The notes beneath the pieces are model-generated. The model was not told where the DNA came from. It ran no database searches and saw only the letters and a program-made list of their open reading frames with translations. The translations under genes were made by a program, and so were the position numbers. Shown here in pieces: positions 2,728-49,931 of a stretch of 64,000 bases of DNA. The first letter of the stretch is position 1. Each line of letters opens with the position of its first letter. Source of the DNA: Escherichia coli (GTDB lineage Bacteria; Pseudomonadota; Gammaproteobacteria; Enterobacterales; Enterobacteriaceae); NCBI RefSeq assembly GCF_041248615.1, contig NZ_CP158426.1; one strand, 5' to 3'.

Positions 2728-3262
2728 AGAATTTGATTTGGAATTTCTTAAATCTAGATTTTCTGATGCAGATTTCTATTTTTTTGTTTCTAATGATGAC
2801 TCATCTTATATTTCATGCGTAGCATGCTATTGTGAGAGCGCTAATTACGTGGTTGCGAATTGGACAGCGATTCAGAATTATTTATCTGCTTACTACCAAC
2901 CGAAGGATGAATTAGCTCTTTGGAATATATATTTAGTTTTCTTTTGTTCCGAAAAATTACCGATTTGGGATAAGTACCTTATAGATAATGATAAGTATTC
3001 TGTCAGAAAATTAATTATTGACGGGTTAACTACTCTGCCAAGTATTTCCGAAACTGTAACTTTTCTGAACAATCATCTGCTAGGCGCAGACCTAGAATTA
3101 ACTGAAATAGAGGAGAAGAAGGAGATAGAGTTATCATTAATTGAGTATATAAGTGGAACTCCTTTAGATTCAAAGGTTGAGTCGAGAGATGAGCGTATGA
3201 GCAGAATTGATAAAATTATTAATCTAGTGAGTTCAAATAAAAATGAAAATAAAAAAAGTTGA
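2711..3262 (+). CDS. Hypothetical protein, 183 aa, middle gene of candidate operon
   Basis: ORF overlaps upstream gene by 17 nt and downstream gene by 20 nt (translational coupling); no recognisable motif. Confidence 0.5.
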   Translation: MNLLNKEFDLEFLKSRFSDADFYFFVSNDDSSYISCVACYCESANYVVANWTAIQNYLSAYYQPKDELALWNIYLVFFCSEKLPIWDKYLIDNDKYSVRKLIIDGLTTLPSISETVTFLNNHLLGADLELTEIEEKKEIELSLIEYISGTPLDSKVESRDERMSRIDKIINLVSSNKNENKKS

Positions 3263-11592: not shown

Positions 11593-12133
11593 ATCTTAAG
11601 AAGCTGCAGTTGAGTCATAGCCAGCGATCAAAATTGAGAAGACAAAACCGGGGAGAGGTGCCCGCAGTTTCTGCCCCAGCTCCCATCTTCAGGAAGATGT
11701 GTTTCAGGAATGCATTCGTGATGCTGGGGATAGCGGCAAGACGATTTTCTCATCGGGTAACTCTGCGGTATCGGAACAGTTGACGACGGCAGGGTGGTGA
11801 ATGGGAACCTCAGGATGAAGCGCTCGGGCAAGAGGGATGGACTGTGCTGAAGAGAACACTGACAGAACGAGCATGATGCTTGCAAAAAGGGGACTCTGGA
11901 TATTCATTGTTTATCTCCTGATGATATTCATCGCTCCAGAGAATACGCTTGCCACTCTTTTTATTTGTTTTCCTGAATTAAAAATGCCCGGTTTTATGTG
12001 GTTCTTCCGTAAACGTTATTACATTAATTAACATCTAGTTTCTATCTCCGAAATGAGGTAAAAAAATAATTGTCGTGGTTTTTATCAAACAAATTTACCG
12101 GCAGCTCAGATCCGAACTAATACCTGGAAATTC

Positions 12134-12182
12134 AAACCCCAAACCCCAAACCCCAAACCCCAAACACCAAACCCCAAACACC
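12134..12182. repeat. Tandem heptanucleotide repeat (AAACCCC/AAACACC) x7
   Basis: Read directly: four AAACCCC, then AAACACC, AAACCCC, AAACACC; complementary strand is (GGGGTTT)n. Confidence 0.9.
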
Positions 12183-12412
12183 ATTTCACCGCTGGCGTGT
12201 AAGGGGCTCTATATCTGTTTATTCAGGGATAGTTTTTTCTCCCGTGTGATTTCCGTTCATGTATCTGCTTCCGGTTAATCGTTTCCCAGCACAACCCGTC
12301 CCGCAAGGGTAAATGGCACGCCTGCTGCGCCCTTGCGGGATGGAACGATGCCGGGAAAGCGAACCGTCAGGCGATACGAAGACGAAAATCACACCACTGA
12401 CGGAGAAAAAAA

Positions 12413-13357
12413 ATGACTATGTCCCTGCATACCAAGATAAGTGCCCCTAACACGACAGCGGCGACCAGCGTATCCTCGCTGGATCTGTCAGGCTCCTCAA
12501 AAACGAAATGTTCAACAGCCAGAACCGATATTTATCAGACTGTTACCGACAGCATAATTGCGGCGCTGGAAACCGGAGTAAAACCTTGGGTGTGTCCTTG
12601 GCAGCGAGCTCCCGGTATGTCCGGTTTACCGTCCAATTACGCCACTGGTAAGGCTTACAGCGGAATGAATATCATGTTGCTTTGGTGCAGCGCGTCAAAA
12701 CAGGGATTCTGTGATTCACGCTGGATGACCTACAAACAGGCAAAAGCGGTAGGTGGGCAGGTGCGCAAGGGAGAACACGGCACTACCGCGATTTTCTATA
12801 CCACGCTGGAAAAGGAAAATGATAACGGAGAAACTGACTATATTCCTATGCTGAAAGCATTCACTGTGTTTAATGTTGAACAAATTGACGGTTTACTCCT
12901 GAGTGATGATGCCGTTTTTCCGGCAGAGATCTTTGAGCCATTACCACGTGCAGAAGCACTTTTTCGTAGTAGCGGTGCAACCATTATTGAAAAAGGACAG
13001 AATGCTTTTTTTACACCATCAACCGACGAAATTCGCTTACCTGAACGGTATCTTTTTATTGATGCTGCTAATTTCTACGCAACCGGCCTGCATGAGCTCG
13101 TTCACTGGAGTGGGGCAAAAAGTCGGCTGAACCGTGAAATGAAAGGGAAATTTGGCAGCGAGGGGTATGCGTTTGAAGAGTTGATCGCTGAGCTGGGGAG
13201 CGCATTCCTGATGGCGGATCTGGGGATAGTTGGAGAAGTTCTGCATGACAGTTATATCGCTTCCTGGCTTAAAGCACTGAGGAATGATAAACGCTATATT
13301 TTCAAGGCCGCCAGCGCGGCATCGAAAGCACATCGCTATTTGATGGATAAAAGCTGA
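12413..13357 (+). CDS. ardC: ArdC-like antirestriction protein (ssDNA-binding N-domain plus zincin-like metallopeptidase C-domain)
   Basis: DIYQTVTDSIIAALETGVKPW N-terminal ArdC-type motif; HExxH motif GLHELVHWSG in C-terminal half; hairpin after stop. Confidence 0.75.
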   Translation: MTMSLHTKISAPNTTAATSVSSLDLSGSSKTKCSTARTDIYQTVTDSIIAALETGVKPWVCPWQRAPGMSGLPSNYATGKAYSGMNIMLLWCSASKQGFCDSRWMTYKQAKAVGGQVRKGEHGTTAIFYTTLEKENDNGETDYIPMLKAFTVFNVEQIDGLLLSDDAVFPAEIFEPLPRAEALFRSSGATIIEKGQNAFFTPSTDEIRLPERYLFIDAANFYATGLHELVHWSGAKSRLNREMKGKFGSEGYAFEELIAELGSAFLMADLGIVGEVLHDSYIASWLKALRNDKRYIFKAASAASKAHRYLMDKS

Positions 13358-13651
13358 GTAGCAAAAAGCCGCAAAGGAATGCGGCTTAATGGGCTGGGGG
13401 TACTAAACCAGTAAAGGTTTAGTCAGTAATATTAGTGAAGCAGAGCAAGTATCGAACAGTCATATTCCTGTAGTGGTATTAAGACAACCTTAAGAAGGGA
13501 CTGATGTATAGCTACTCTTGTATACCCATCCATGGAAAATTCGGTTGTATTGCCGGGTTGATATGTGCAGGTTGGTCCCGACCCAAGAAGTTTTTACTGT
13601 GAAAATTGTCAAACTATATCAATGTGGTAACAGCTTCTCTTGTCCCTTTGG

Positions 13652-14002
13652 TTATTTCAAATTGGACCGGGCTATCTGTTGCAACACGGTTGCTCTGCTT
13701 GAAACAGAGTTAACATATGCAACATCAGATACTTTGAGTTTGATCAGATCATAGCCTCGTAGCTTACTGTCCAAGGTCATATTGAACAGAGTTAAATCGC
13801 GCATTTTACCTTCCATTTCAAGCCTGATTCGGATCCCCCCTGATATGAGATATCTGAAGTGGTCTTTTTGGTCAGTGATACTTACAATACGGTCTTTGTC
13901 CCACGGTGACGTGTTCATACTCAAAGCTCCTGTAATGTTGGAGATTTGAGCATGGTTATCCCTCATGAGCGAGGAACGGACAATGTCCCTTGCGCGATCC
14001 AA
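13652..14002 (-). CDS. Hypothetical protein, possible recombinase-like remnant
   Basis: 116-aa ORF; weak resemblance (LRGYDLIKLKVSDV) to tyrosine recombinase core motif; no clear start context. Confidence 0.25.
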   Translation of the reverse strand: MDRARDIVRSSLMRDNHAQISNITGALSMNTSPWDKDRIVSITDQKDHFRYLISGGIRIRLEMEGKMRDLTLFNMTLDSKLRGYDLIKLKVSDVAYVNSVSSRATVLQQIARSNLK

Positions 14003-14200
14003 GATTGATTTTTCTTATTAAATTAAGCTATGGCTGACCTACGAACGATAGGCAAAATGCTCCTAAAGCTACGGCTTATGACAGTAAAAAACATATTGAT
14101 AAAAATCTGAGCTGGTTTAGAATGCTATAATGGAATAATTATTTATTTTCGGCCTTCAGTTTGATCATTTTTAGAAATCACCCTTTTGAAGGAATCTACA

Positions 14201-14995
14201 ATGGAATCAGAAGAAACGAAAGAAGAGAGTTATCAACAGCGTTCGGAGTTTATCAGAAAAATAATTCAACAGCCTGTTGAGGGTGTCATATCTTCATGCA
14301 CTATACCAAAAAAAATAATTCAATTTTGGGATTCATCCAATACTATCCCTAATGATGTCAGACATTGCATGAAATCATGGCGTATCTTAGAACCTTTTGG
14401 GTATGAGTATTTACTATATGATTTCGTTAGCGCCCAAGAATTTATTAAACATAATTTGGGTGAAACATACAGTGAAGCTTTTGCCAAGTGTACTCATCCT
14501 GCTATGCAATCAGATTATTTCCGATTATGTTATATCTCGGTAAACGGGGGATTTTATGTTGACACTGATGATGTTTATCTGGGTAGTGAGATAAGTAGTT
14601 TTTTCACGGATGATAAGTTAAAAATACAACCTTTATGCTACGATATTTCCACCGATTCTATGATTCCACCAGAAATTTTTACAAAGGAAAATACTTATGA
14701 AGAATCTTGGATTTTTTATTTCAACAACAACCCGTTAATTGCTCCGCCTCATCATGTTATCATTGATAAGGCACTAGAGCAATCCACATACTTACTTAAT
14801 AAATCAAGCTATCCTCTCACAGATATTCAGTCAACAACTGGTCCTGGTAATCTATCTAAATCTATTTTCTCGTGTCGCGAGGAAATAGATTTATTATCCC
14901 AGATTACGGTAGTATCAAACTGGCAAGATATTGCAGAAACTAAGTGGGATTTAGAATACAGAGCTGATTCTAGAAATTGGCGCTTGATGAATTAA
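14201..14995 (+). CDS. Glycosyltransferase with DXD motif (Gly_transf_sug-like)
   Basis: IIQFWDSSN...CMKSW and GGFYVDTDDVY motifs; ATG 14201 with GAAGGA upstream (track start is TTG 14186); AT-rich. Confidence 0.65.
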   Translation: MESEETKEESYQQRSEFIRKIIQQPVEGVISSCTIPKKIIQFWDSSNTIPNDVRHCMKSWRILEPFGYEYLLYDFVSAQEFIKHNLGETYSEAFAKCTHPAMQSDYFRLCYISVNGGFYVDTDDVYLGSEISSFFTDDKLKIQPLCYDISTDSMIPPEIFTKENTYEESWIFYFNNNPLIAPPHHVIIDKALEQSTYLLNKSSYPLTDIQSTTGPGNLSKSIFSCREEIDLLSQITVVSNWQDIAETKWDLEYRADSRNWRLMN

Positions 14996-15010
14996 CATGG
15001 ATTTTTAATA

Positions 15011-17212
15011 ATGAACATTAAAAATAATTTGAAAGGTATTAGCCGTTTTTTTTATTCTTTTTACTTACGCTCTCGGTTACTTCTCCCAGCGCAAAAATCA
15101 TCGACCTTTAATACATTAAATCAGAATGAAGGCGTTATTAGCAGGATTTACGCTATAAACTTAGAACGGGAAGCGATTAGATGGGCAGATTTAAATAAAG
15201 AACTGGGTAAAATACTAGATAAATCTAATAAAAAATTAACGAGCCAATTAACCAGATTCTCTGCTATAAACGCCAAAGAAATGTCAGACATTCTCAATGA
15301 GGAAGAGGTTATTCCTTATTATACTTTAGCAGACCAGTTGTACGTTGACCCTCAACCAAAAATCTTACCCGATAAATTTGATCTCGATGTCCCTATAAAA
15401 ATGAGTAAAGCGGAAATTGCTGTAGCATTATCGCATCTAAATGTTATTAGGCTTGTTGCAGAAGGTTCTGATGCATATGCTTTAGTGCTTGAGGATGACG
15501 TGTATTTTGAAAGAGATTTTGCCAAAACCTTAGATGCTGCTTGGTCTGAAATGATTCAAGCTGACAGATCTTCACCTGGTTTTGATATCTTATATTTGTC
15601 ATTTAAAGAGGTTATGAATGGCGCGAAAAAGAAAATTATTTCGAAAAGCATATTTAAACCAGAGCGAGGGTTATGGTATTTTTCAGGATATGTATTATCT
15701 AAGAAAGGAGCAAATAAAATCCTCTCACTCCTCCCAACTTATGGACCAATTGACTTATGGATAAATCATCAATTTGAGAAACTCGATGTGAGGGCAGTAT
15801 ATAAGTCGATCATTTCTCAGAGGTTGGATTTTAACTCTTCAAATTCCTATTCAATATTACCTACCTTAGTGAAGATTGGTATTATTGACAATGAAAAAGC
15901 TTCCAGTTTTAATGAACTTCCAAATTATTGGCCTGTTTTTGCATTTGGTGTAAGTGGTTCGGGTATTTCTTCTTTGGGTATGGCACTATCAATGCTTGGC
16001 TATAAGTGTTGTAGTGATATTGATAGACTTCCCAATGCAGACTTAAAAAATCTATTAAGTAATTCAGAGCAGAATGAATTCAATGCTTATGTAAATGTTG
16101 GCTGTCTCAGTAAGTATATCGGCATATTAAAAAAACAATATCCAAAAGCAAAATTTATAATTACCACGAGTGAATCAAAAGAAATCGAAGATGTTATTTT
16201 TAATATAATTGAGGAGATCGTTGATACTGACTATGTTGTATTGCATTCAGATGAAAAAAACAAATGGAAGGTTATATGTGAATACCTTCAATGCCCACCA
16301 CCTATTTCAGCGTACCCAGAAATGGCTGACATTATTCCTAGGCAGATTATAGATATCACCAGTGCAGCACAAATCAATAATTCAGAAATTAACATGATAC
16401 ATGACATTTCCCCTTGGATATTAGAAAGAAAGAATTTTTCAGGAAATGGTTTTTTTATAAAAGATAATCCGAAGAGAATTGAAAAAGAGCTTGCTGATTT
16501 CTTCATTAATGATTCACTACAAAATATTAATAATAACTATTGGGAAATTCGCGATGATACTTTCCCTGGAAATCTTGGACTGTTTCGACCTCAAAATGTG
16601 ATTCAAAATGATATTAGTGGTTTAGGTCTTGTAGTTAAGGAGGAACAGTTAGGCGTTAGAGAGTTTAGTGCTGCTGCGATTTCAAGTAGAATGAAGTTCC
16701 TATATGGCCGATTTGAAGTGTCCCTACGAGCGGCAAATGTTGCAGGGATAGTAACCGGCTTCTTTTTACATAGAGATTCGCCTCGTCAAGAAATCGATAT
16801 TGAGTTTGTTGGAAATCGATCTGATCATATGTTGATCAATGTTTTTTATAATCCTGGTGATGAAGGTGCAAAGTTTGATTATGGATATCGTGGTACACCA
16901 ACTCTTATTCCTTTAGGTTTTGATGCTTCTGAAGAGTTTCATGATTACATGATTGAATGGAGTCCTGATGAGATAAAATGGTTTGTGGATGGAGTTATGG
17001 TTTATCGTAGAGGAGTTTGGGGGCCTACACCTATACCTCATTTACCCATGACCCTTCATGCTAACACTTGGCCAACCCGTTCCAAGGAACTGGCGGGACG
17101 TCTCCACACGCGTTCCTTACCCTGTATCACTTATATTAGGAAAATATGTATTGATGCAACAATGGATGTTAATAATCCAAAATTAAATGACCAGACAGTA
17201 GTGGCTGGTTAA
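15011..17212 (+). CDS. Multidomain protein: GT25-like glycosyltransferase N-domain, central region, GH16-like C-terminal domain
   Basis: N-terminal RIYAINLEREAIRW and LVLEDDVYFE resemble family 25 glycosyltransferases; C-terminal EIDIEF matches the GH16 ExDxxE catalytic motif; 733 aa; AT-rich. Confidence 0.65.
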   Translation: MNIKNNLKGISRFFYSFYLRSRLLLPAQKSSTFNTLNQNEGVISRIYAINLEREAIRWADLNKELGKILDKSNKKLTSQLTRFSAINAKEMSDILNEEEVIPYYTLADQLYVDPQPKILPDKFDLDVPIKMSKAEIAVALSHLNVIRLVAEGSDAYALVLEDDVYFERDFAKTLDAAWSEMIQADRSSPGFDILYLSFKEVMNGAKKKIISKSIFKPERGLWYFSGYVLSKKGANKILSLLPTYGPIDLWINHQFEKLDVRAVYKSIISQRLDFNSSNSYSILPTLVKIGIIDNEKASSFNELPNYWPVFAFGVSGSGISSLGMALSMLGYKCCSDIDRLPNADLKNLLSNSEQNEFNAYVNVGCLSKYIGILKKQYPKAKFIITTSESKEIEDVIFNIIEEIVDTDYVVLHSDEKNKWKVICEYLQCPPPISAYPEMADIIPRQIIDITSAAQINNSEINMIHDISPWILERKNFSGNGFFIKDNPKRIEKELADFFINDSLQNINNNYWEIRDDTFPGNLGLFRPQNVIQNDISGLGLVVKEEQLGVREFSAAAISSRMKFLYGRFEVSLRAANVAGIVTGFFLHRDSPRQEIDIEFVGNRSDHMLINVFYNPGDEGAKFDYGYRGTPTLIPLGFDASEEFHDYMIEWSPDEIKWFVDGVMVYRRGVWGPTPIPHLPMTLHANTWPTRSKELAGRLHTRSLPCITYIRKICIDATMDVNNPKLNDQTVVAG

Positions 17213-17490
17213 TCATTAGAGTGAAAAGTAAATATTAGTAAGGCACTGGTAAAAATGTAGACACTATCAGTGCCTTAGTAGTTATCCCTCTGGATGGTTT
17301 TTTGACAATAATTTCCGTTTCTGGCACGGAACGGACAGAAAGCAGGGCCACCAAATCTCTCACGAGCCAAAAACCTAAATTATGATCTGACAGATACATG
17401 TATCAATGAAACTGTCGCTGTCAGATCAATTACGCCTTACTATCTGAAAATTATTTGATTTTCTGCATCGTGCATTCAAATTAACAATGT

Positions 17491-18342
17491 TCAGGAGGCA
17501 TAAACTGAAAGGAGTTCTTTAGCTGCCAATTGACCAAGTGCGTTGGCTGCAAAAGGACTGTCACCTGTCAGTACCTTACGATCTTTGTATACGCTTCCTT
17601 TAATATCATCATTAACAATATTCATCCCCATTTGCTTAAGTGCATCGCCAAAATACCATGTGAGATGGCCCGGCATATAACCAATGTCAGGCGTCTGCTT
17701 ATCAGCTGAATCAGGGAAAGCGCAAATAGAATACTCTTTTAGAGGGTTTTCACCATTGCGCAGCGAAAGGAATGCTGCTGGGCCATGGCAAAGGGATATG
17801 ACGAAGCGGTCATTGTCCATGAACCAGCGAAGAGTATCGGCTACTGCGCTGCTTTCTGGCAGCCCAATCAGTGCGCCGTGGCCACCAGGAATAAACACGG
17901 CAGCATATTCACTTTGCTTGTTCAGGCTATTCAATACATCAGACAATTTTTCAGGATTTTGGAACTTGTCTCTATACCGGCTGAAAAATGGCATAACTTT
18001 CTCATCCTTGTGCGGCATGGCCCAGTATTCGAACTTTGTCATGTAACCTGAGATTGTCGCAATGTCAAAATCAAAACCAGCAGCATGCAGGTGATACATT
18101 GGAATAAGCGTTTCAACAGGATGGTTTCCCGTTGAGAACAGAGCCCCGCTATCAGTCATCAGGTAACGCTCATCCGCAGCGATGACCAGCACCTTCTTCC
18201 CTCCCATGCACTGTTTGGGATAGTCGTAGTCACTAAGGTCAGATACGGGGCTGGTAAACTGACTAAGGGAATAGTCAGAGGGGAAAAATGCGTTTTCTTC
18301 AGCATGATCCACTTTCGGATGTTTACTTTTATCATTTGTCAT
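17491..18342 (-). CDS. hchA: Hsp31 / glyoxalase III (DJ-1/PfpI family), divergent HchA homologue
   Basis: 283-aa product from MTNDKSKHPKVDHAEENAFFPSDYSLSQ; strong but not identical similarity to recalled E. coli HchA (KFEYWAMPHKDEKVMPFF, FVISLCHGPAAFL, TGDSPFAANALG); track ORF 17491..18504 extends upstream into the IS2 flank. Confidence 0.85.
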   Translation of the reverse strand: MTNDKSKHPKVDHAEENAFFPSDYSLSQFTSPVSDLSDYDYPKQCMGGKKVLVIAADERYLMTDSGALFSTGNHPVETLIPMYHLHAAGFDFDIATISGYMTKFEYWAMPHKDEKVMPFFSRYRDKFQNPEKLSDVLNSLNKQSEYAAVFIPGGHGALIGLPESSAVADTLRWFMDNDRFVISLCHGPAAFLSLRNGENPLKEYSICAFPDSADKQTPDIGYMPGHLTWYFGDALKQMGMNIVNDDIKGSVYKDRKVLTGDSPFAANALGQLAAKELLSVYAS

Positions 18343-18514
18343 TACGTATTCCTCGTTGATTGGTGTTAACTCTCTTTCTCGGGCCTGAATTCGCCTGTTA
18401 TATGGGCGACCAGGATAGCCTGATAGACTGGCCCCATGAATCTCCAGACAACCAATATCACTTAAATAAGTGATAGTCTTAATACTAGTTTTTAGACTAG
18501 TCATTGGAGAGCAG

Positions 18515-18880
18515 ATGATTGATGTCTTAGGACCGGAGAAACGCAGACGGCGTACTACACAGGAAAAGATCGCTATTGTTCAGCAGAGTTTTGAACCGGG
18601 AATGAAGGTCTCCCTTGTTGCCCGGCAACACGGTGTGGCAGCCAGCCAGTTATTTCTCTGGCGCAAGCAATACCAGGAGGGAAGTCTTACTGCTGTGGCC
18701 GCAGGAGAGCAGGTCGTTCCTGCCTCTGAACTTGCTGCTGCCATGAAGCAGATTAAAGAACTCCAGCGCCTGCTCGGCAAAAAAACGATGGAAAATGAAC
18801 TCCTTAAAGAAGCCGTTGAATACGGGCGTGCAAAAAAGTGGATAGCGCACGCGCCCTTATTGCCCGGGGATGGGGAGTAA
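18515..18880 (+). CDS. insC: IS2 transposase OrfA (InsC)
   Basis: [29 protein letters not shown]... matches recalled IS2 InsC; ATG at 18515 inside track ORF 18470..18880. Confidence 0.9.
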
Positions 18881-19743
18881 GCTTAGTCAGCCGTTGTCTC
18901 CGGGTGTCGCGTGCGCAGTTGCACGTAATTCTCAGACGAACCGATGACTGGAAAGATGGTCGCCGCAGCCGTCACTCAGATGATACGGATGTGCTTCTCC
19001 GTATACACCATGTTATCGGAGAGCTGCCCACGTATGGTTATCGTCGGGTATGGGCGCTGCTTCGCAGACAGGCCGAACTTGATGGTACGCCTGCGATCAA
19101 TGCCAAACGTGTTTACCGGATCATGCGCCAGAATGCGCTGTTGCTTGAGCGAAAAACCGCTGTACCGCCATCGAAACGGGCACATACTGGCAAAGTGGCC
19201 GTGAAAGAAAGCAATCAACGATGGTGCTCTGACGGGTTCGAGTTCCGCTGTGATAACGGAGAAAAACTGCGAGTCACGTTCGCGCTGGACTGCTGTGACC
19301 GTGAGGCACTGCACTGGGCAGTCACTACGGGCGGCTTCGACAGTGAAACAGTACAGGACGTCATGCTGGGAGCGGTGGAACGCCGCTTCGGCAACGAGCT
19401 TCCGGCGTCTCCAGTAGAGTGGCTGACGGATAATGGTTCATGCTACCGGGCTAATGAAACACGGCAGTTTGCCCGGATATTGGGGCTTGAACCGAAGAAC
19501 ACGGCGGTGCGGAGTCCGGAGAGTAACGGCATAGCAGAGAGCTTCGTGAAAACGATAAAGCGTGACTACATCAGTATCATGCCTAAACCAGACGGGTTAA
19601 CGGCAGCAAAGAACCTTGCAGAGGCGTTCGAGCATTATAACGAATGGCATCCGCATAGTGCACTGGGTTATCGCTCGCCACGGGAATATCTGCGGCAGCA
19701 GGCCAGTAATGGGTTAAGTGATAACAGGTGTCTGGAAATATAG
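18838..19743 (+). CDS. insD: IS2 transposase OrfB (InsD), DDE integrase domain
   Basis: Overlaps insC 3' end in a different frame as expected for IS3-family frameshifting; sequence matches recalled IS2 OrfB. Confidence 0.9.
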
Positions 19744-20342
19744 GGGCAAATCCACCTGAGTAGTGGTAGTCTCTTCCATACGGTTGCGTACGTATCTCAG
19801 GTGGTTTGCTACAGCATGCGGAGATAGTCCCAGTAAACCAAGAACCACTTTAGCTTTTGATGACTCATACCCCCAATCTGAACACTCCTTTAATACCCAT
19901 ATTGCCGAATACAGGAATCATAATGTCGTGCAAAATACCACTAACAAAATTATGACAATTTAATAACTTTGAACGTGGCTTTGTGTTCCAGTTTTATGCC
20001 AGGAGAAATCATTCGATATCTTTATAAAATATCGTTCTAACTGTAAGTAATTAATATGATTTTTCTCATAAAAAAACTTAAAATCAGTTAACTTCAGCCC
20101 GGAATATGCGTTCACTGAGCGGCCTCTTCATGAACGAAACCGAGAAAAAATAGGCTACAGTCACAACCACACTGTAGAGCAACTTCTCTCACGTGCTGTT
20201 TCAGAGAATAGATCTTCTTGCATCTGAAGAATGGTATCCAGAGCTATCCTGATCACCCCTGAATGCAATAGTTGCGTATACTAGGCGCATGACAGAATCA
20301 TAAAATGAGAGCTATCCCTTATTATCATGACTTCAGTAAAAT

Positions 20343-21098
20343 TTAAATTTGCATTGAGGTAGCGATATCGAGACGTTGCAGTTCGTCAATCGTGTAGATG
20401 CGGAACACATTCCTGTGGCGGGTTTCCAGTGGGATGTGTTGATGATTCACGATGACGTACTGGATGCTGTCAAACAGCCGTTCAAGACCGAGTTTTTTTT
20501 GCGGGTCTGGCACAATATAAAAAACGTAGATCCAGTCTTTACGCGTTCGGGCCAGTAAATGACTGGCTATGATCGACTGGTAACGGGCTTTGGTTTTCAG
20601 ATGGCGCTCGGTCTCGATGGCGATCACCGTGCCGCTGGGGAGGGCAATTAGCCCGTCCGGGCGGTGACTGACCTGATAACGACTCAGGAAAGTTGTGCGA
20701 TCGCCATGTATCCAGCCGCATGCGCCTTTTTTTTCGAGGATGATCCGCGCCATCTGATTATCAAGGTGATGTTCCAGCGTCCAGCCTGTGAGTTTTGAAG
20801 GCTCAAACCGGGCCGGGAAAATTTCATCATCAGGCTGTATTACGACCGCCAGCCCGTCGTTGGTTATTCCCCACAATGAAATTTTCTTCGTACGTGATAC
20901 CAGGACGTGTTTTTGTATTAACCCCATTCCCTCAACTTTTGAAAGCAGGGAATACAGTGATTTATGATCCCTGAAGCCGAACAGCAGCATCAGTGTTGTA
21001 AAATCACTGTACGTTTCTTCTTTCAGGAAATTCAGCAGTCGTATTATCTTCTCGCGATGTCGGGTCTGGCGCTCGCGGTATGCGGTGATAAGCATCAT
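20343..21098 (-). CDS. Hypothetical mobilization protein, possible MobC-like small relaxase
   Basis: 251-aa ORF 8 nt downstream of coupling-protein gene; function inferred from position only. Confidence 0.35.
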   Translation of the reverse strand: MMLITAYRERQTRHREKIIRLLNFLKEETYSDFTTLMLLFGFRDHKSLYSLLSKVEGMGLIQKHVLVSRTKKISLWGITNDGLAVVIQPDDEIFPARFEPSKLTGWTLEHHLDNQMARIILEKKGACGWIHGDRTTFLSRYQVSHRPDGLIALPSGTVIAIETERHLKTKARYQSIIASHLLARTRKDWIYVFYIVPDPQKKLGLERLFDSIQYVIVNHQHIPLETRHRNVFRIYTIDELQRLDIATSMQI

Positions 21099-21106
21099 TT
21101 CCCCTT

Positions 21107-23032
21107 CTAAAAGTTCAGTAACGAGGGATGATCCTCTTTACCTGCACCTGCACCTGCACCTGCACCTGCACTTGTTGTTGTGTGTTTCTCGTCCGGCTTG
21201 TCAAAAAAGAGATCGGGTTGTGTTGTCGTGATAACTGATGTTGATGACGGTCCGGATGACATTTCTTCCTCGTCAAAATTCAGGGCAATGTTGACTCTTG
21301 CGGCGGTGGCGGCAACAGCGGGCGATACGGCACAGATCGCCAGTTCCCTTTTTTTAACCCTGATGGGAGAAATTAGTGAAGCAGAGGGGAGGGCTTTGGT
21401 GGTGAATATAAAACTGACAAAATCAGGCAGGTTCAGCACCATATTACTGTCGATAAAGAAACGCTCGGCCTGCCTGATGGTGCGTTCACTATCGATAGTC
21501 TCTGTCAGCACCGCATCTGTTTTGGCTTTGCGGACTTCGTCATCGACTAATATGGTGCCTGACATTCTTGCCACCCAGTCAGCGGTATCAGGGTCCATGA
21601 CACGATAAACCAGCTTGAATTTGGCATTCTCCACAACTGCACCCACCACGGCATCGCTTTTCAAATCCGCCGGGCAATCTTTTAAATCGGCAATGGATTG
21701 GTGGTCCATAATAATGTGTACACCTTTATCCCGTGCCGCACCTAAGCCTTCCAGCGCAGGCTTGGATAAATGGTATTTCAGTTCGGAAAGGTAAATAGCA
21801 ATAGGGCGGGGTGTGTGGTTTACCCGATCGCGCCTTTCTGCCAGCTGGTACAGGCGAACCAGCAGCATGCGCTGAGCGGTAATAATTTTGCTGTTGCGCA
21901 TCGAGCCAATCACATAGCAGCAACCACCGTTATCAAATATTGTATTGAGGGAAAATCCTGCCGGTGCATTGATGGCATTGAGTAAGGCCAGCTCCTCAAT
22001 TTTCCCGAAAAAGGCTTTTATCTTATCAGCGATACTTTGGACGTATTCCCCGTTATACACATCCCGAATGGTTGAGGTCGTATTACGGGCGACAAATTGT
22101 GCAGCTATTCGGGCTGCTTTGCGATCGTCAATGCGATAAAAGTCAGACTCTTGTCCTTTCTCTGCCAGACTGAAACCCGCGACAAAAAGTTCTTCCAGTT
22201 CATCAGCGGTGATATCGTTAATCAGGTTTAGCTGGTATGCCTGTTTCCTCAGGTCAATTAGGGCAAAGGATTTCCCTGCATCCTCGCAGGCTTTCCGGTA
22301 AAGGTGTGGGGCCCACTCATCATCTTTGGGGTCCATAACAAATACGCCTTCACCGGCCAAAATACTCTGATAAAGTAATATCCCGGTGGCCACCCCTTTA
22401 CCGGCCCCCGTGGTCCCGATGATATCGGCATGTTGTTTTTGCCAGTCTTTTAACGGCAGGTACATCGGCTGTTTCATTCTGTTCATGCCGATAAAAATAC
22501 CTTTACTCAGGTTAATATAATCCTCCGGGTTATAGTGCAATGTTTCCGGTAGCAGCGATTTCACCGTTCGGACATCAGTACGTAATTCCCTTTCCAGAGT
22601 GGTTTTTCTGACGAACCGACTTTTTACTTTATCGAGTTCAGGTGTTAACACCCTGCGCAGAAGAATATGGAAAACAAAACCGGCTGCGGTAGAGGTAATC
22701 AGTATCAGCCAGGAGAGGACAGTATTGCTGGTGGCTATCTTTATTCGGTATATCCATTGAAATAATTCGTTCACCACGGGCGCTATTGTGCCAAACAAAA
22801 AGCACAGTATGGAAAAAACTATCACCAGCTTTTTCCATAAAGGGGCTTTGAGTCGTTCATCGCTTTTCATCGACGCGAAGAATGGCATGGTCAGCCCTGA
22901 GAATAGCGCCAAAATAGGTTGATGCTGGTGCATAAAAACGAGCAGTCCCAGCATGCCGTCCACTATCGGTGATAGTGAAACGATCAGCTTATTTAACACC
23001 ATAATGCTTCCTTTATCGGCCATTCGCCCCAC
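21107..23032 (-). CDS. Type IV coupling protein (VirD4/TraD/MobB-like)
   Basis: N-terminal TM helices; Walker A GTTGAGKGVATG; 641 aa; C-terminal Gly-Ala repeat. Confidence 0.85.
   Translation of the reverse strand: MGRMADKGSIMVLNKLIVSLSPIVDGMLGLLVFMHQHQPILALFSGLTMPFFASMKSDERLKAPLWKKLVIVFSILCFLFGTIAPVVNELFQWIYRIKIATSNTVLSWLILITSTAAGFVFHILLRRVLTPELDKVKSRFVRKTTLERELRTDVRTVKSLLPETLHYNPEDYINLSKGIFIGMNRMKQPMYLPLKDWQKQHADIIGTTGAGKGVATGILLYQSILAGEGVFVMDPKDDEWAPHLYRKACEDAGKSFALIDLRKQAYQLNLINDITADELEELFVAGFSLAEKGQESDFYRIDDRKAARIAAQFVARNTTSTIRDVYNGEYVQSIADKIKAFFGKIEELALLNAINAPAGFSLNTIFDNGGCCYVIGSMRNSKIITAQRMLLVRLYQLAERRDRVNHTPRPIAIYLSELKYHLSKPALEGLGAARDKGVHIIMDHQSIADLKDCPADLKSDAVVGAVVENAKFKLVYRVMDPDTADWVARMSGTILVDDEVRKAKTDAVLTETIDSERTIRQAERFFIDSNMVLNLPDFVSFIFTTKALPSASLISPIRVKKRELAICAVSPAVAATAARVNIALNFDEEEMSSGPSSTSVITTTQPDLFFDKPDEKHTTTSAGAGAGAGAGKEDHPSLLNF
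21137..21166. repeat. Hexanucleotide tandem repeat (CACCTG)x5 within coupling protein C-terminus
   Basis: Read directly; encodes (Ala-Gly)n on the minus strand; in-frame repeat. Confidence 0.85.
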
Positions 23033-23270
23033 GACATCGCCCCCTCAATTCGCCCCACGGTGTTGGGCGAAAAGCTGGGGTGAAAGCAGGGGCAAACAGA
23101 GGTGGCTGCGGTGCAGCCATGTGCCGGTAGATAGACTTTCCGGCCCGAAACGACGTGCACCAGTTCATGCGGGCTGGACGCCCTTATTGCCTGGCGCATG
23201 GGGGTAATGGCGTGGCTGTACGCCGCGCCAAAACCCCCAGGGTCAACGGCGGCACACCGTCGCCCGCTAC

Positions 23271-23633
23271 GCGCGACCAACCCCTTTAAGACGCGCGTTT
23301 CGCCTGTTTTTTTCTCGCAAGCTCCAAAAAACGGGAACGCTGCTTTAAAGGGGTTGGTCGCGCCTGATTGGTAATATCCCCGCTGGGGCGGGAAATATTA
23401 CCTGGCTTGACGGTGTGCGGGGCAAGCCCCCCACAAAAAACGGCACGTGGGCGTGCCTTTTTGCTCGCTGGGGCGGCAAAATTTTTGCGGCTCCCCCGGC
23501 CTGCTTAATTCGCTGTGGGCGAATGTGCGCAGATGGATGCGGTACCTGAAAATTAACAATTTCTGCGAAATTGAATTTTCTGTCCGCGTTCCACTGGCTT
23601 ATTTCACGGCTTAACAATTTCTCCGAAATTGAA
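23271..23633. other. Candidate oriT / relaxosome assembly region with inverted and direct repeats
   Basis: 20-bp near-perfect inverted repeat (23271-23290 vs 23344-23363); two copies of TTAACAATTTCNCGAAATTGAA (23553-23575, 23611-23633), each containing dyad CAATTTC-N3-GAAATTG; lies between coupling protein gene and T4SS genes. Confidence 0.5.
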
Positions 23634-23709
23634 GCCAGAAATTAGCCAGCCTCAACCCCGCCGTCTGTCAGTCTGTGGCGCTGTGAGGCATAGTGTAATG
23701 TCCGGTGGT

Positions 23710-49855: not shown

Positions 49856-49931
49856 TGGCTCCTCTGACTGGACTCGAACCAGTGACATACGGATTAACAG
49901 TCCGCCGTTCTACCGACTGAACTACAGAGGA
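49856..49931 (-). tRNA. asnT: tRNA-Asn (anticodon GUU)
   Basis: Reverse complement reads TCCTCTGTAGTTCAGTCGGTAGAACGGCGGACTGTTAATCCGTATGTCACTGGTTCGAGTCCAGTCAGAGGAGCCA; matches recalled E. coli tRNA-Asn; next to mtfA as at the E. coli asnT locus. Confidence 0.95.

Follow-up and report, generated by a model that had tools for sequence, protein, structure and literature searches.

A length-variable heptanucleotide repeat upstream of an ArdC gene in a tRNA-Asn integrative conjugative element of Escherichia coli

What does a heptanucleotide tandem repeat do in front of the anti-restriction gene of a conjugative element, if it does anything at all? To our knowledge, long and fast-changing simple repeats are unusual in E. 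coli, and the one considered here sits on a self-transmissible element, beside such a gene. We analysed it within a stretch of 64,000 nucleotides of DNA, called the window in the following, and at the corresponding site of related elements. A preliminary description of the locus had proposed a substrate of slipped-strand mispairing, a G-quadruplex-capable strand, a modulator of gene expression in a leading region, and a recombination or structural signal. We report here which of these proposals agree with the data, and which reading of the tract we prefer.

By direct reading, the tract is (AAACCCC)4-AAACACC-AAACCCC-AAACACC, i.e., a contiguous array of seven 7-bp units, the fifth and the seventh of which carry a C-to-A variant, just as first described. 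Tandem Repeats Finder (TRF) reports it at 12133-12183 with period 7, 7.3 copies, 93% matches and a score of 88, which places it among the two top-scoring arrays of the 64-kb window. A three-unit probe with at most two mismatches yields five overlapping matches at the tract and none elsewhere in the window, and again none in 100 dinucleotide-preserving shuffles. The head-to-tail arrangement of short units is thus beyond chance. The window sequence is identical to the chromosome of E. coli NRZ14408 (NZ_LT599825.1), where the tract occupies positions 2095805-2095853. The previously given distance of about 230 bp to an ArdC-like gene also holds: the tract ends 230 bp upstream of the ATG, and RefSeq name and Pfam domains agree on the gene. 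Other tandem repeats of the window are a perfect (ACCTGC)5.3 array at 21140-21171 and a block at 58299-58394, in which five copies of a 10-mer precede (ACAGAT)8 / four copies of a 12-mer; their TRF scores are 64, 51 and 89. The features around the tract are compiled in Table 1.

Table 1. Features of the tract region, in window coordinates.
Feature	Position	Strand	Basis and remarks
67-aa ORF with signal-peptide-like N-terminus and good Shine-Dalgarno (SD) sequence, unannotated in RefSeq	11704..11907	-	Divergent from ArdC
AT-rich left flank, conserved across genera	11908..12127		Alignment; presumed upstream/regulatory region of the 67-aa ORF
AAATTC, left anchor of the repeat site	12128..12133	+	Common to E. 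coli, Serratia, Pectobacterium, the sister lineage and K. michiganensis p8BG
Heptanucleotide tandem repeat (VNTR)	12134..12182	+ strand AAACCCC type, - strand GGGGTTT type	Direct reading, TRF, allele series
Four consecutive GGGG runs with TTT loops	12137..12161	-	Regular expression (G3+, loops 1-7, both strands); G4Hunter; ViennaRNA fold with G-quadruplexes
Conserved spacer between tract and hairpin, ATTTCACCGCTG...AAGGGGC...	12183..12232	+	Alignments; wider ArdC-ICE homology starts at its left edge
Conserved imperfect hairpin of ~180 nt directly upstream of ArdC	12233..12411	-	Folding and covariation
ArdC family anti-restriction protein, 314 aa	12413..13357	+	RefSeq name; Pfam ArdcN and MPTase-PolyVal (zincin-like)

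The tract is located inside an integrative conjugative element (ICE) of the ICEEc1/ICEKp/pMET1 type, inserted at a tRNA-Asn gene of the E. coli chromosome. The tRNA-Asn gene (49856-49931) adjoins the integrase. The element encodes a VirB-type T4SS, a coupling protein and MobC, and its cargo includes an ABC-three-component defence system as well as a DUF554-UbiX-UbiD-LysR cluster. A search of the window for the far att repeat, which would duplicate the 3' end of the tRNA, retrieved only the copy in tRNA-Asn, so that the far end of the ICE lies outside the window or has decayed. The genes follow the layout T4CP(mobB)-mobC-(nuclease)-ardC, with ardC on the opposite strand, as in pMET1, pCRY, HPI-ECOR31 (ICEEc1) and ICEKp1, and in these elements a putative oriT lies upstream of mobB (PMC2262945). 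In the window, this position, where the family literature puts oriT, corresponds to the 707 bp of intergenic sequence that precede the T4 coupling protein gene (23003-23709) and contain a C-rich patch at 23020-23058 with a G4Hunter score of about -1.6. The distance between ArdC and mobC is approximately 7 kb in the window element, taken up by an integrase pseudogene, GT32 and GH16 genes, hchA and an IS3 (regions 13517-13918 and 12413-23002); it is approximately 200-700 bp in 675SK2-type ICEs and plasmids. The assignment of the tract to a leading region is plausible from gene orientation and from the family literature (PMC2262945, PMC11541004), but it presupposes a nick site and a transferred strand that are themselves only presumed; for pMET1, either strand was suggested as a possible nick target (PMC2262945).

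How variable is the tract? Only five complete E. coli records, from four strains, share both of its flanks. NRZ14408 has seven units and flanks identical to the window. Both assemblies of 2018-06-4CC have 12 units, with no SNP in 3,234 nt of the left and three in 3,268 nt of the right flank. YF-1 has 20 units, again with no SNP on the left and three on the right, and A38 has 12 units, all of them perfect, between flanks that are approximately 94-95% identical. The three closest complete genomes hence carry 7, 12 and 20 units despite 0-3 flank SNPs in 6.5 kb. Further alleles were taken from contigs encoding exactly the two ArdC protein alleles. With P for AAACCCC and a for AAACACC, the spanning alleles have three (PPa), five (PPPPa), seven (PPPPaPa and PPPPPPa), eight (PPPPPPPa and PPPPPPPP) and nine units (PPPPPPPPa). 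Almost all of them show 0-1 SNP over 1.2 kb of flanking sequence, although small indels inflate two of the comparisons. Among the short-read contigs, at least eight end within the tract. Overall, near-identical elements carry 3, 5, 7, 8, 9, 12 or 20 units, i.e., they differ by whole units as is typical of a VNTR.

The change in length is confined to the pure 5' run, which comprises 4, 9 or 17 units before a constant aPa end. Variation of the 5' run with a fixed 3' end is the usual polarity of microsatellites. Instability scales with the pure run here, while short or interrupted parts are stable: the 5' run varies, the aPa or a end is constant, and a lineage with three pure units is invariant. 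With 3 to 20 units in near-identical elements, the tract behaves as the substrate of slipped-strand mispairing that it had been proposed to be, and its copy number, compared across related elements, is anything but invariant. We regard slippage as the well supported and very probable mechanism of the length change. The MutS-dependent mismatch repair of E. coli does not handle misaligned loops as large as 7 nt, and thus no special mechanism is needed for the tract to be unstable.

Errors of assembly or sequencing are an extremely improbable source of these differences. Some alleles do stem from short-read or Logan contigs, and one contig ends in a degenerate poly-C. However, the complete long-read genomes alone give 7, 12, 12 and 20 units, the differences are exact multiples of 7 bp between intact flanks, and independent assemblies agree with each other, both for 2018-06-4CC (two with 12 units) and for the NRZ14408 type (two with seven). 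With the seven-unit allele found again in the second NRZ14408-like assembly, an accident of assembly does not account for the copy number of the window.

More distant copies of the junction were reached via homologues of the 67-aa ORF that have the same length. At this site, Serratia grimesii carries (AAACCCC)13 followed by AAACCC. A sister lineage, with an ArdC of 312 aa and different downstream cargo, carries AAACCCC (AACCCCC)n AACTCCT with n = 1, 2, 2, 3 and 4. Both unit types, AACCCCC and AAACCCC, keep the 7-bp period, with G runs of at least four on one strand and no G on the other. A lineage from eight metagenome samples, which may represent one strain, has PPP and AAACCCT throughout, and this invariance of three pure units is expected of a sub-threshold tract. 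The sites of Pectobacterium parmentieri (AAACCCCAAAAACC), K. michiganensis p8BG (AACCCCAAACCC) and the E. coli 675SK2-type ICE (TTAACCCCCAAACC) read as seed-only states, and in an ICEKp-like lineage (UK_Dog_Liverpool) the site is C/A-rich and non-repetitive. Among 203 E. coli genomes that share the right flank, the expanded tract occurs in five; the other approximately 198 have a seed of 1-2 units or non-repetitive sequence. None of the seven plasmid records that match the right flank has the expanded tract (437 plasmid records carry the hairpin), and a metagenome scan for the tract joined to the right flank gave no match. Within complete E. coli genomes, the left flank is restricted to the five tract-carrying records.

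The comparison of elements also shows where the site is located with respect to their conserved part: the cargo differs to the left of the tract, and homology between elements begins exactly at its 3' end. From these observations we propose that the tract grew by replication slippage from a short seed, probably CCCCAAACC next to ATTTCACC. The seed would form the left edge of the conserved backbone block of hairpin and ArdC in the tRNA-Asn ICE, at which the variable cargo begins. The pure 5' run of AAACCCC would then gain and lose whole units, and the interrupted AAACACC units at the 3' end would stay in place. The suggested recombination signal has a single, circumstantial point in its favour: the tract lies exactly where the homology between elements breaks. 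Growth from a seed at a pre-existing junction explains this equally well. In the 675SK2-type ICE, an annotated "JAB domain-containing protein" is in fact a piece of RadC, truncated at its 5' end, whose start coincides exactly with the junction seed (2776-3009 of that locus); the junction has thus been a breakpoint more than once. This also disposes of the idea that a radC/JAB gene starts at the minus-strand ATG at 12185 and reads into the tract: since the 675SK2 ORF is a truncated fragment beginning at the junction, the tract is not a gene start.

A general association of (AAACCCC)n with ArdC was rejected. The probe (AAACCCC)4 matches at least 120 loci in representative genomes, and none of the loci fetched encodes ArdC. 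Many of the loci among the matches listed are telomere-like contig ends in MAGs. Contigs of 1-4 kb in bacterial MAGs from horse faeces, a sulfidic cave and other sources begin or end in (CCCCAAA)n and have (TTTGGGG)n at the opposite end, and from their sequence they look like telomere-capped eukaryotic mini-chromosomes of the ciliate type, mis-binned as bacteria. In Pantoea sp. IMH, an independent chromosomal (GGGGTTT)7-8 tract lies in the intergenic region between thyA and a prepilin-like gene (2997-3045 of the locus). The AAACCCC heptamer can thus expand in unrelated contexts within the Enterobacterales.

Contiguous 7-bp direct repeats also resemble heptad operator arrays in general, and a protein-binding array, operator- or centromere-like, might be considered. 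The omega repressor of pSM19035, for instance, binds 7-bp repeats. An array of this kind should be conserved together with its cognate binding protein. Here, elements that are otherwise identical have anything from 1 to 20 copies, lineages differ in the sequence of the unit, the array is missing from most elements that share the backbone genes, and no candidate for a cognate binding protein co-varies with it. This reading is extremely unlikely.

The second proposal, a quadruplex-capable opposite strand, is confirmed for the seven-unit allele by the motif rule (G3+, loops 1-7). Taking both strands of the 64-kb window together, a single canonical G-quadruplex motif exists, on the minus strand at 12137-12161, and its G4Hunter score of -2.56 is the most extreme one in the window. 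Four G runs are present in the window allele, but neither in the three-unit allele nor in the sister-lineage alleles with n = 1-2. The capacity to form a quadruplex is thus not conserved: some alleles fall short of four G runs, and in most relatives there are none at all. Within the seed-growth model, a quadruplex on the G-rich strand may contribute to polymerase stalling and thereby to slippage.

The neighbourhood of the tract deserves attention of its own. The spacer leads into a long imperfect hairpin, at whose stem base TTCTCC pairs with the ArdC Shine-Dalgarno sequence GGAGAA. As single-stranded DNA it folds with -50.6 kcal/mol (z = -5.6). Its consensus from 14 homologues in seven genera has 44 pairs, six of them with compensatory changes, and an invariant core of approximately 50 nt, CGAACCGTCAGGCGATACGAAGACGAAA. 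The minus strand folds better than the plus strand, both in the consensus (alifold -52.1 vs -42.2) and in 13 of the 14 single sequences. In MOB_C/MPF_T plasmids and ICEs, the hairpin is present in 2-3 copies per plasmid, before ArdC and neighbouring genes, all of which point to mobC. A long conserved hairpin in the template strand of a leading-region gene, as known from Frpo/ssi elements, is thus given, provided that the minus strand is the transferred one, as we infer. Neither sequence similarity nor promoter hexamers link the hairpin to these elements: it has no similarity to the F leading region (NC_002483, 50-68 kb), no clear -35/-10 hexamers were detected with a position weight matrix (PWM), and a search of Rfam returned no family, only two matches at chance level. 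From its predicted fold, the hairpin is a candidate single-strand (Frpo/ssi-like) element, and it could represent an undescribed single-strand promoter or ssi element, or else a translational leader.

Quadruplex and hairpin may be combined into a functional reading. A quadruplex on the transferred minus strand, just 3' of the hairpin, would stall the synthesis of the complementary strand, the single-strand promoter of ArdC would stay active for longer, and the length of the tract would tune this delay. The only canonical motif of 64 kb is indeed on the minus strand, the hairpin is conserved with compensatory changes and folds better on that same strand, and ArdC and other hairpin-led genes face mobC and the putative oriT, as leading-region genes of F do (PMC11541004). 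Moreover, conversion to double-stranded DNA is reported to end Frpo-driven expression in F (PMC9849209). Against this reading stand the three-unit allele and the sister-lineage alleles with n = 1-2, all with fewer than four G runs, the relatives that mostly have none, and a hairpin that has neither similarity to the F leading region nor recognisable -35/-10 elements. In addition, the transferred strand is only presumed, nicking of either strand being allowed for pMET1 (PMC2262945), and the literature that we searched yielded nothing that links G-quadruplexes to conjugative leading regions. We therefore give this explanation a small probability. Smaller still is the one we assign to its extension, in which the tract is a contingency locus for conjugative establishment: a quadruplex in the entering strand beside the ArdC hairpin would delay complementary-strand synthesis and lengthen the anti-restriction burst, and slippage would vary the length of this burst among donors. 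If true, this would be the first length-variable quadruplex "timer" in a conjugative leading region.

The main rival of the reading as a by-product of slippage, ahead of the quadruplex on the transferred strand, is a tunable regulatory repeat. Copy number would act as a contingency locus or rheostat and set the expression of ArdC or of the 67-aa gene via spacing, topology or a transcribed leader. The model is hmw1A/hmw2A of H. influenzae, where repeat length inversely sets the level of the adhesin and varies between strains by slipped-strand mispairing (PMC2651432; PMC12721329), the transcribed repeat being one arm of a 5'-UTR hairpin (PMC12721329). Several observations are in agreement with a regulatory role. 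The tract is intergenic between two divergent genes, its unit length is that of the hmw repeat, whose length inversely tracks expression (PMC2651432; PMC12721329), its allelic diversity is high, and several lineages retain it at the same site, with one or the other of two unit types. Strong conservation makes a regulatory nature of the left flank probable. The 67-aa ORF, whose ATG is 227 bp away from the tract, has 11 homologues, all of 67 aa, including those of Serratia grimesii and Pectobacterium parmentieri. They adjoin ArdC, or porin and amidase genes of related elements. Its frame is intact in A38, and gene callers predict it.

The routes that we examined, by which length could act on these genes, gave no sign of such an action. 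A coding or frameshift switch was rejected, as the stop-to-stop frames across the tract are 17-92 aa long whatever the allele, change with copy number and never join a real gene. The promoter-spacer model found no support: the promoter scan was empty on the relevant strands, and the best sigma-70-like sites beside the tract score 7.3 (+) and 7.8 (-), below the window mean best of 9.45 per 560 nt, in a scan that applied the sigma-70 consensus and has weak, alternative-sigma or single-strand promoters beyond its reach. Competition between tract and hairpin was rejected too, since folds with 0-20 units show no length-dependent rearrangement. The minus-strand ssDNA fold of the hairpin is 94-96% unchanged over this range, and no pairing of the tract with the 180-nt hairpin is predicted. 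In the plus-strand RNA the energy shifts by at most 0.8 kcal/mol, the SD sequence is always sequestered, and at most 10 nt of the tract are paired at any copy number. The hmw system requires the repeat as a hairpin arm with a complementary partner and a structure that depends on length; its mechanism thus does not apply here. Three 7-bp units correspond to two helical turns. The unit counts spread evenly modulo 3 (about 4, 5 and 4 alleles), and thus give no sign of a face-of-helix constraint. Both start codons are 227-230 bp away from the tract, with the hairpin between the tract and ArdC, and most relatives with the same ArdC block do without it. The suggestion that it modulates gene expression thus found no backing in the absence of a spanning ORF and of promoters above background, in folds that do not respond to length, and in the rarity of the expanded state among the 203 genomes. 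Altogether we consider a regulatory repeat unlikely. What the tract does change, by 21 to 140 bp, is how far the ArdC hairpin lies from the upstream region of the small ORF, and no recognisable signal is detectably affected by this.

The plus strand allows a further reading, as an insulator that loads Rho. Read-through, e.g., from the lysR-type gene, would produce a G-free, C-rich RNA that recruits Rho in a rut-like manner before the hairpin-ArdC block is reached. The tract region is the most C-rich and G-poor 78-nt plus-strand stretch of the 64 kb (34 C, 3 G; ratio 8.75 vs 3.3 at the 99.9th percentile) and holds the longest G-free run of the window (63 nt). The tract is unpaired in predicted RNA folds, and our scan found no intrinsic terminator between lysR and ArdC. 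This extreme composition, however, follows trivially from the repeat unit. Transcription of the plus strand across the tract is only presumed, short alleles (21-35 nt) fall under the usual size of rut sites, relatives manage without a tract, and termination might already occur at 12208-12238, where a T-run follows a weak hairpin. Such an insulator is highly unlikely.

Implementing all facts, we find it rather probable that the tract is a hypermutable heptanucleotide VNTR, grown from a seed, whose length varies without a dedicated function. Most likely the variation is close to neutral, i.e., a mutational by-product of a slippery junction and not a dedicated switch. Some observations speak against neutrality. 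An expanded tract persists at this site although the flanks diverge by approximately 6-10%, and it does so in more than one genus (E. coli lineages, Serratia), and AACCCCC was independently expanded at the same site in the sister lineage. Judged from the sequences, both could reflect selection for a variable tract and not only a slippery seed. The same side of the balance holds the shared period and strand asymmetry of the two unit types and the rarity of long simple repeats in E. coli. The location of the tract is suggestive, too: it lies between two divergent genes, and the hairpin in front of the anti-restriction gene, with its conserved structure, is 50 bp away.

In practical terms, the tract is a ready-made marker for very fine tracking of the ICE lineage, and it breaks contigs in short-read assemblies. 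If its length did affect ArdC or the small secreted peptide, the logic of contingency loci would extend from surface genes of pathogens to the establishment of conjugation. From a biological point of view, two neighbours of the repeat may prove more widely interesting than the repeat itself, namely the covarying 180-nt hairpin, found before ArdC and other genes of MOB_C plasmids and ICEs, and the 67-aa ORF, which is unannotated.

How does the locus relate to known repeat systems? A literature search for the (AAACCCC)n motif in E. coli gave nothing relevant, and the locus is apparently undescribed. The tract sequence resembles the telomeric units C4A2/C4A4 of ciliates, but telomeres are terminal and made by telomerase, whereas the tract is internal to a chromosomal ICE; a telomeric repeat at the end of a linear replicon was thus rejected. 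With the pilE-associated G-quadruplex of Neisseria and other bacterial quadruplexes it shares G runs with short T loops that can fold into such a structure. The pilE motif is single, non-repeated, invariant and needed for recombination, in contrast to a tract that varies in length and has several alleles without quadruplex capacity. In its pattern the tract resembles the bacterial VNTR loci used for MLVA typing, with perfect short units, whole-unit polymorphism among near-identical genomes, and a stable interrupted end beside a variable pure run. Such loci belong to the core genome; the tract is on an ICE and hence would type the element, not the strain.

It is the neighbouring hairpin, not the tract, that is reminiscent of the Frpo/ssi promoters of conjugative leading regions. 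It is long and imperfect, it immediately precedes anti-defence genes oriented towards the putative oriT (PMC11541004), and it is repeated before successive genes, with covariation. It differs by its lack of similarity to the F leading region and of clear -35/-10 hexamers, and the SD sequence sequestered by its stem base would equally fit an mRNA leader. The known systems closest to the tract are found in neuO and in hmw. The poly-psi repeat in neuO of E. coli K1 (CUS-3 prophage) is likewise a heptanucleotide repeat on a mobile element, subject to slipped-strand mispairing (PMC9659370), but it is part of the coding sequence, where frameshifts turn translation on or off, whereas no ORF crosses the tract. 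The (ATCTTTC)n repeat of H. influenzae hmw1A/hmw2A agrees with the tract in its 7-bp unit, its intergenic position upstream of a gene and its widely varying copy number. It differs in being located approximately 100 bp upstream, transcribed, and part of a 5'-UTR hairpin with a G-rich partner arm that is cleaved by RNase III; the E. coli tract is 230 bp upstream, has neither a pairing partner nor a promoter above background beside it, may or may not have an effect, and sits on a conjugative element of the Enterobacteriaceae. Without the structure of hmw and without the coding location of neuO, the tract shares unit length and mutational mechanism with both.
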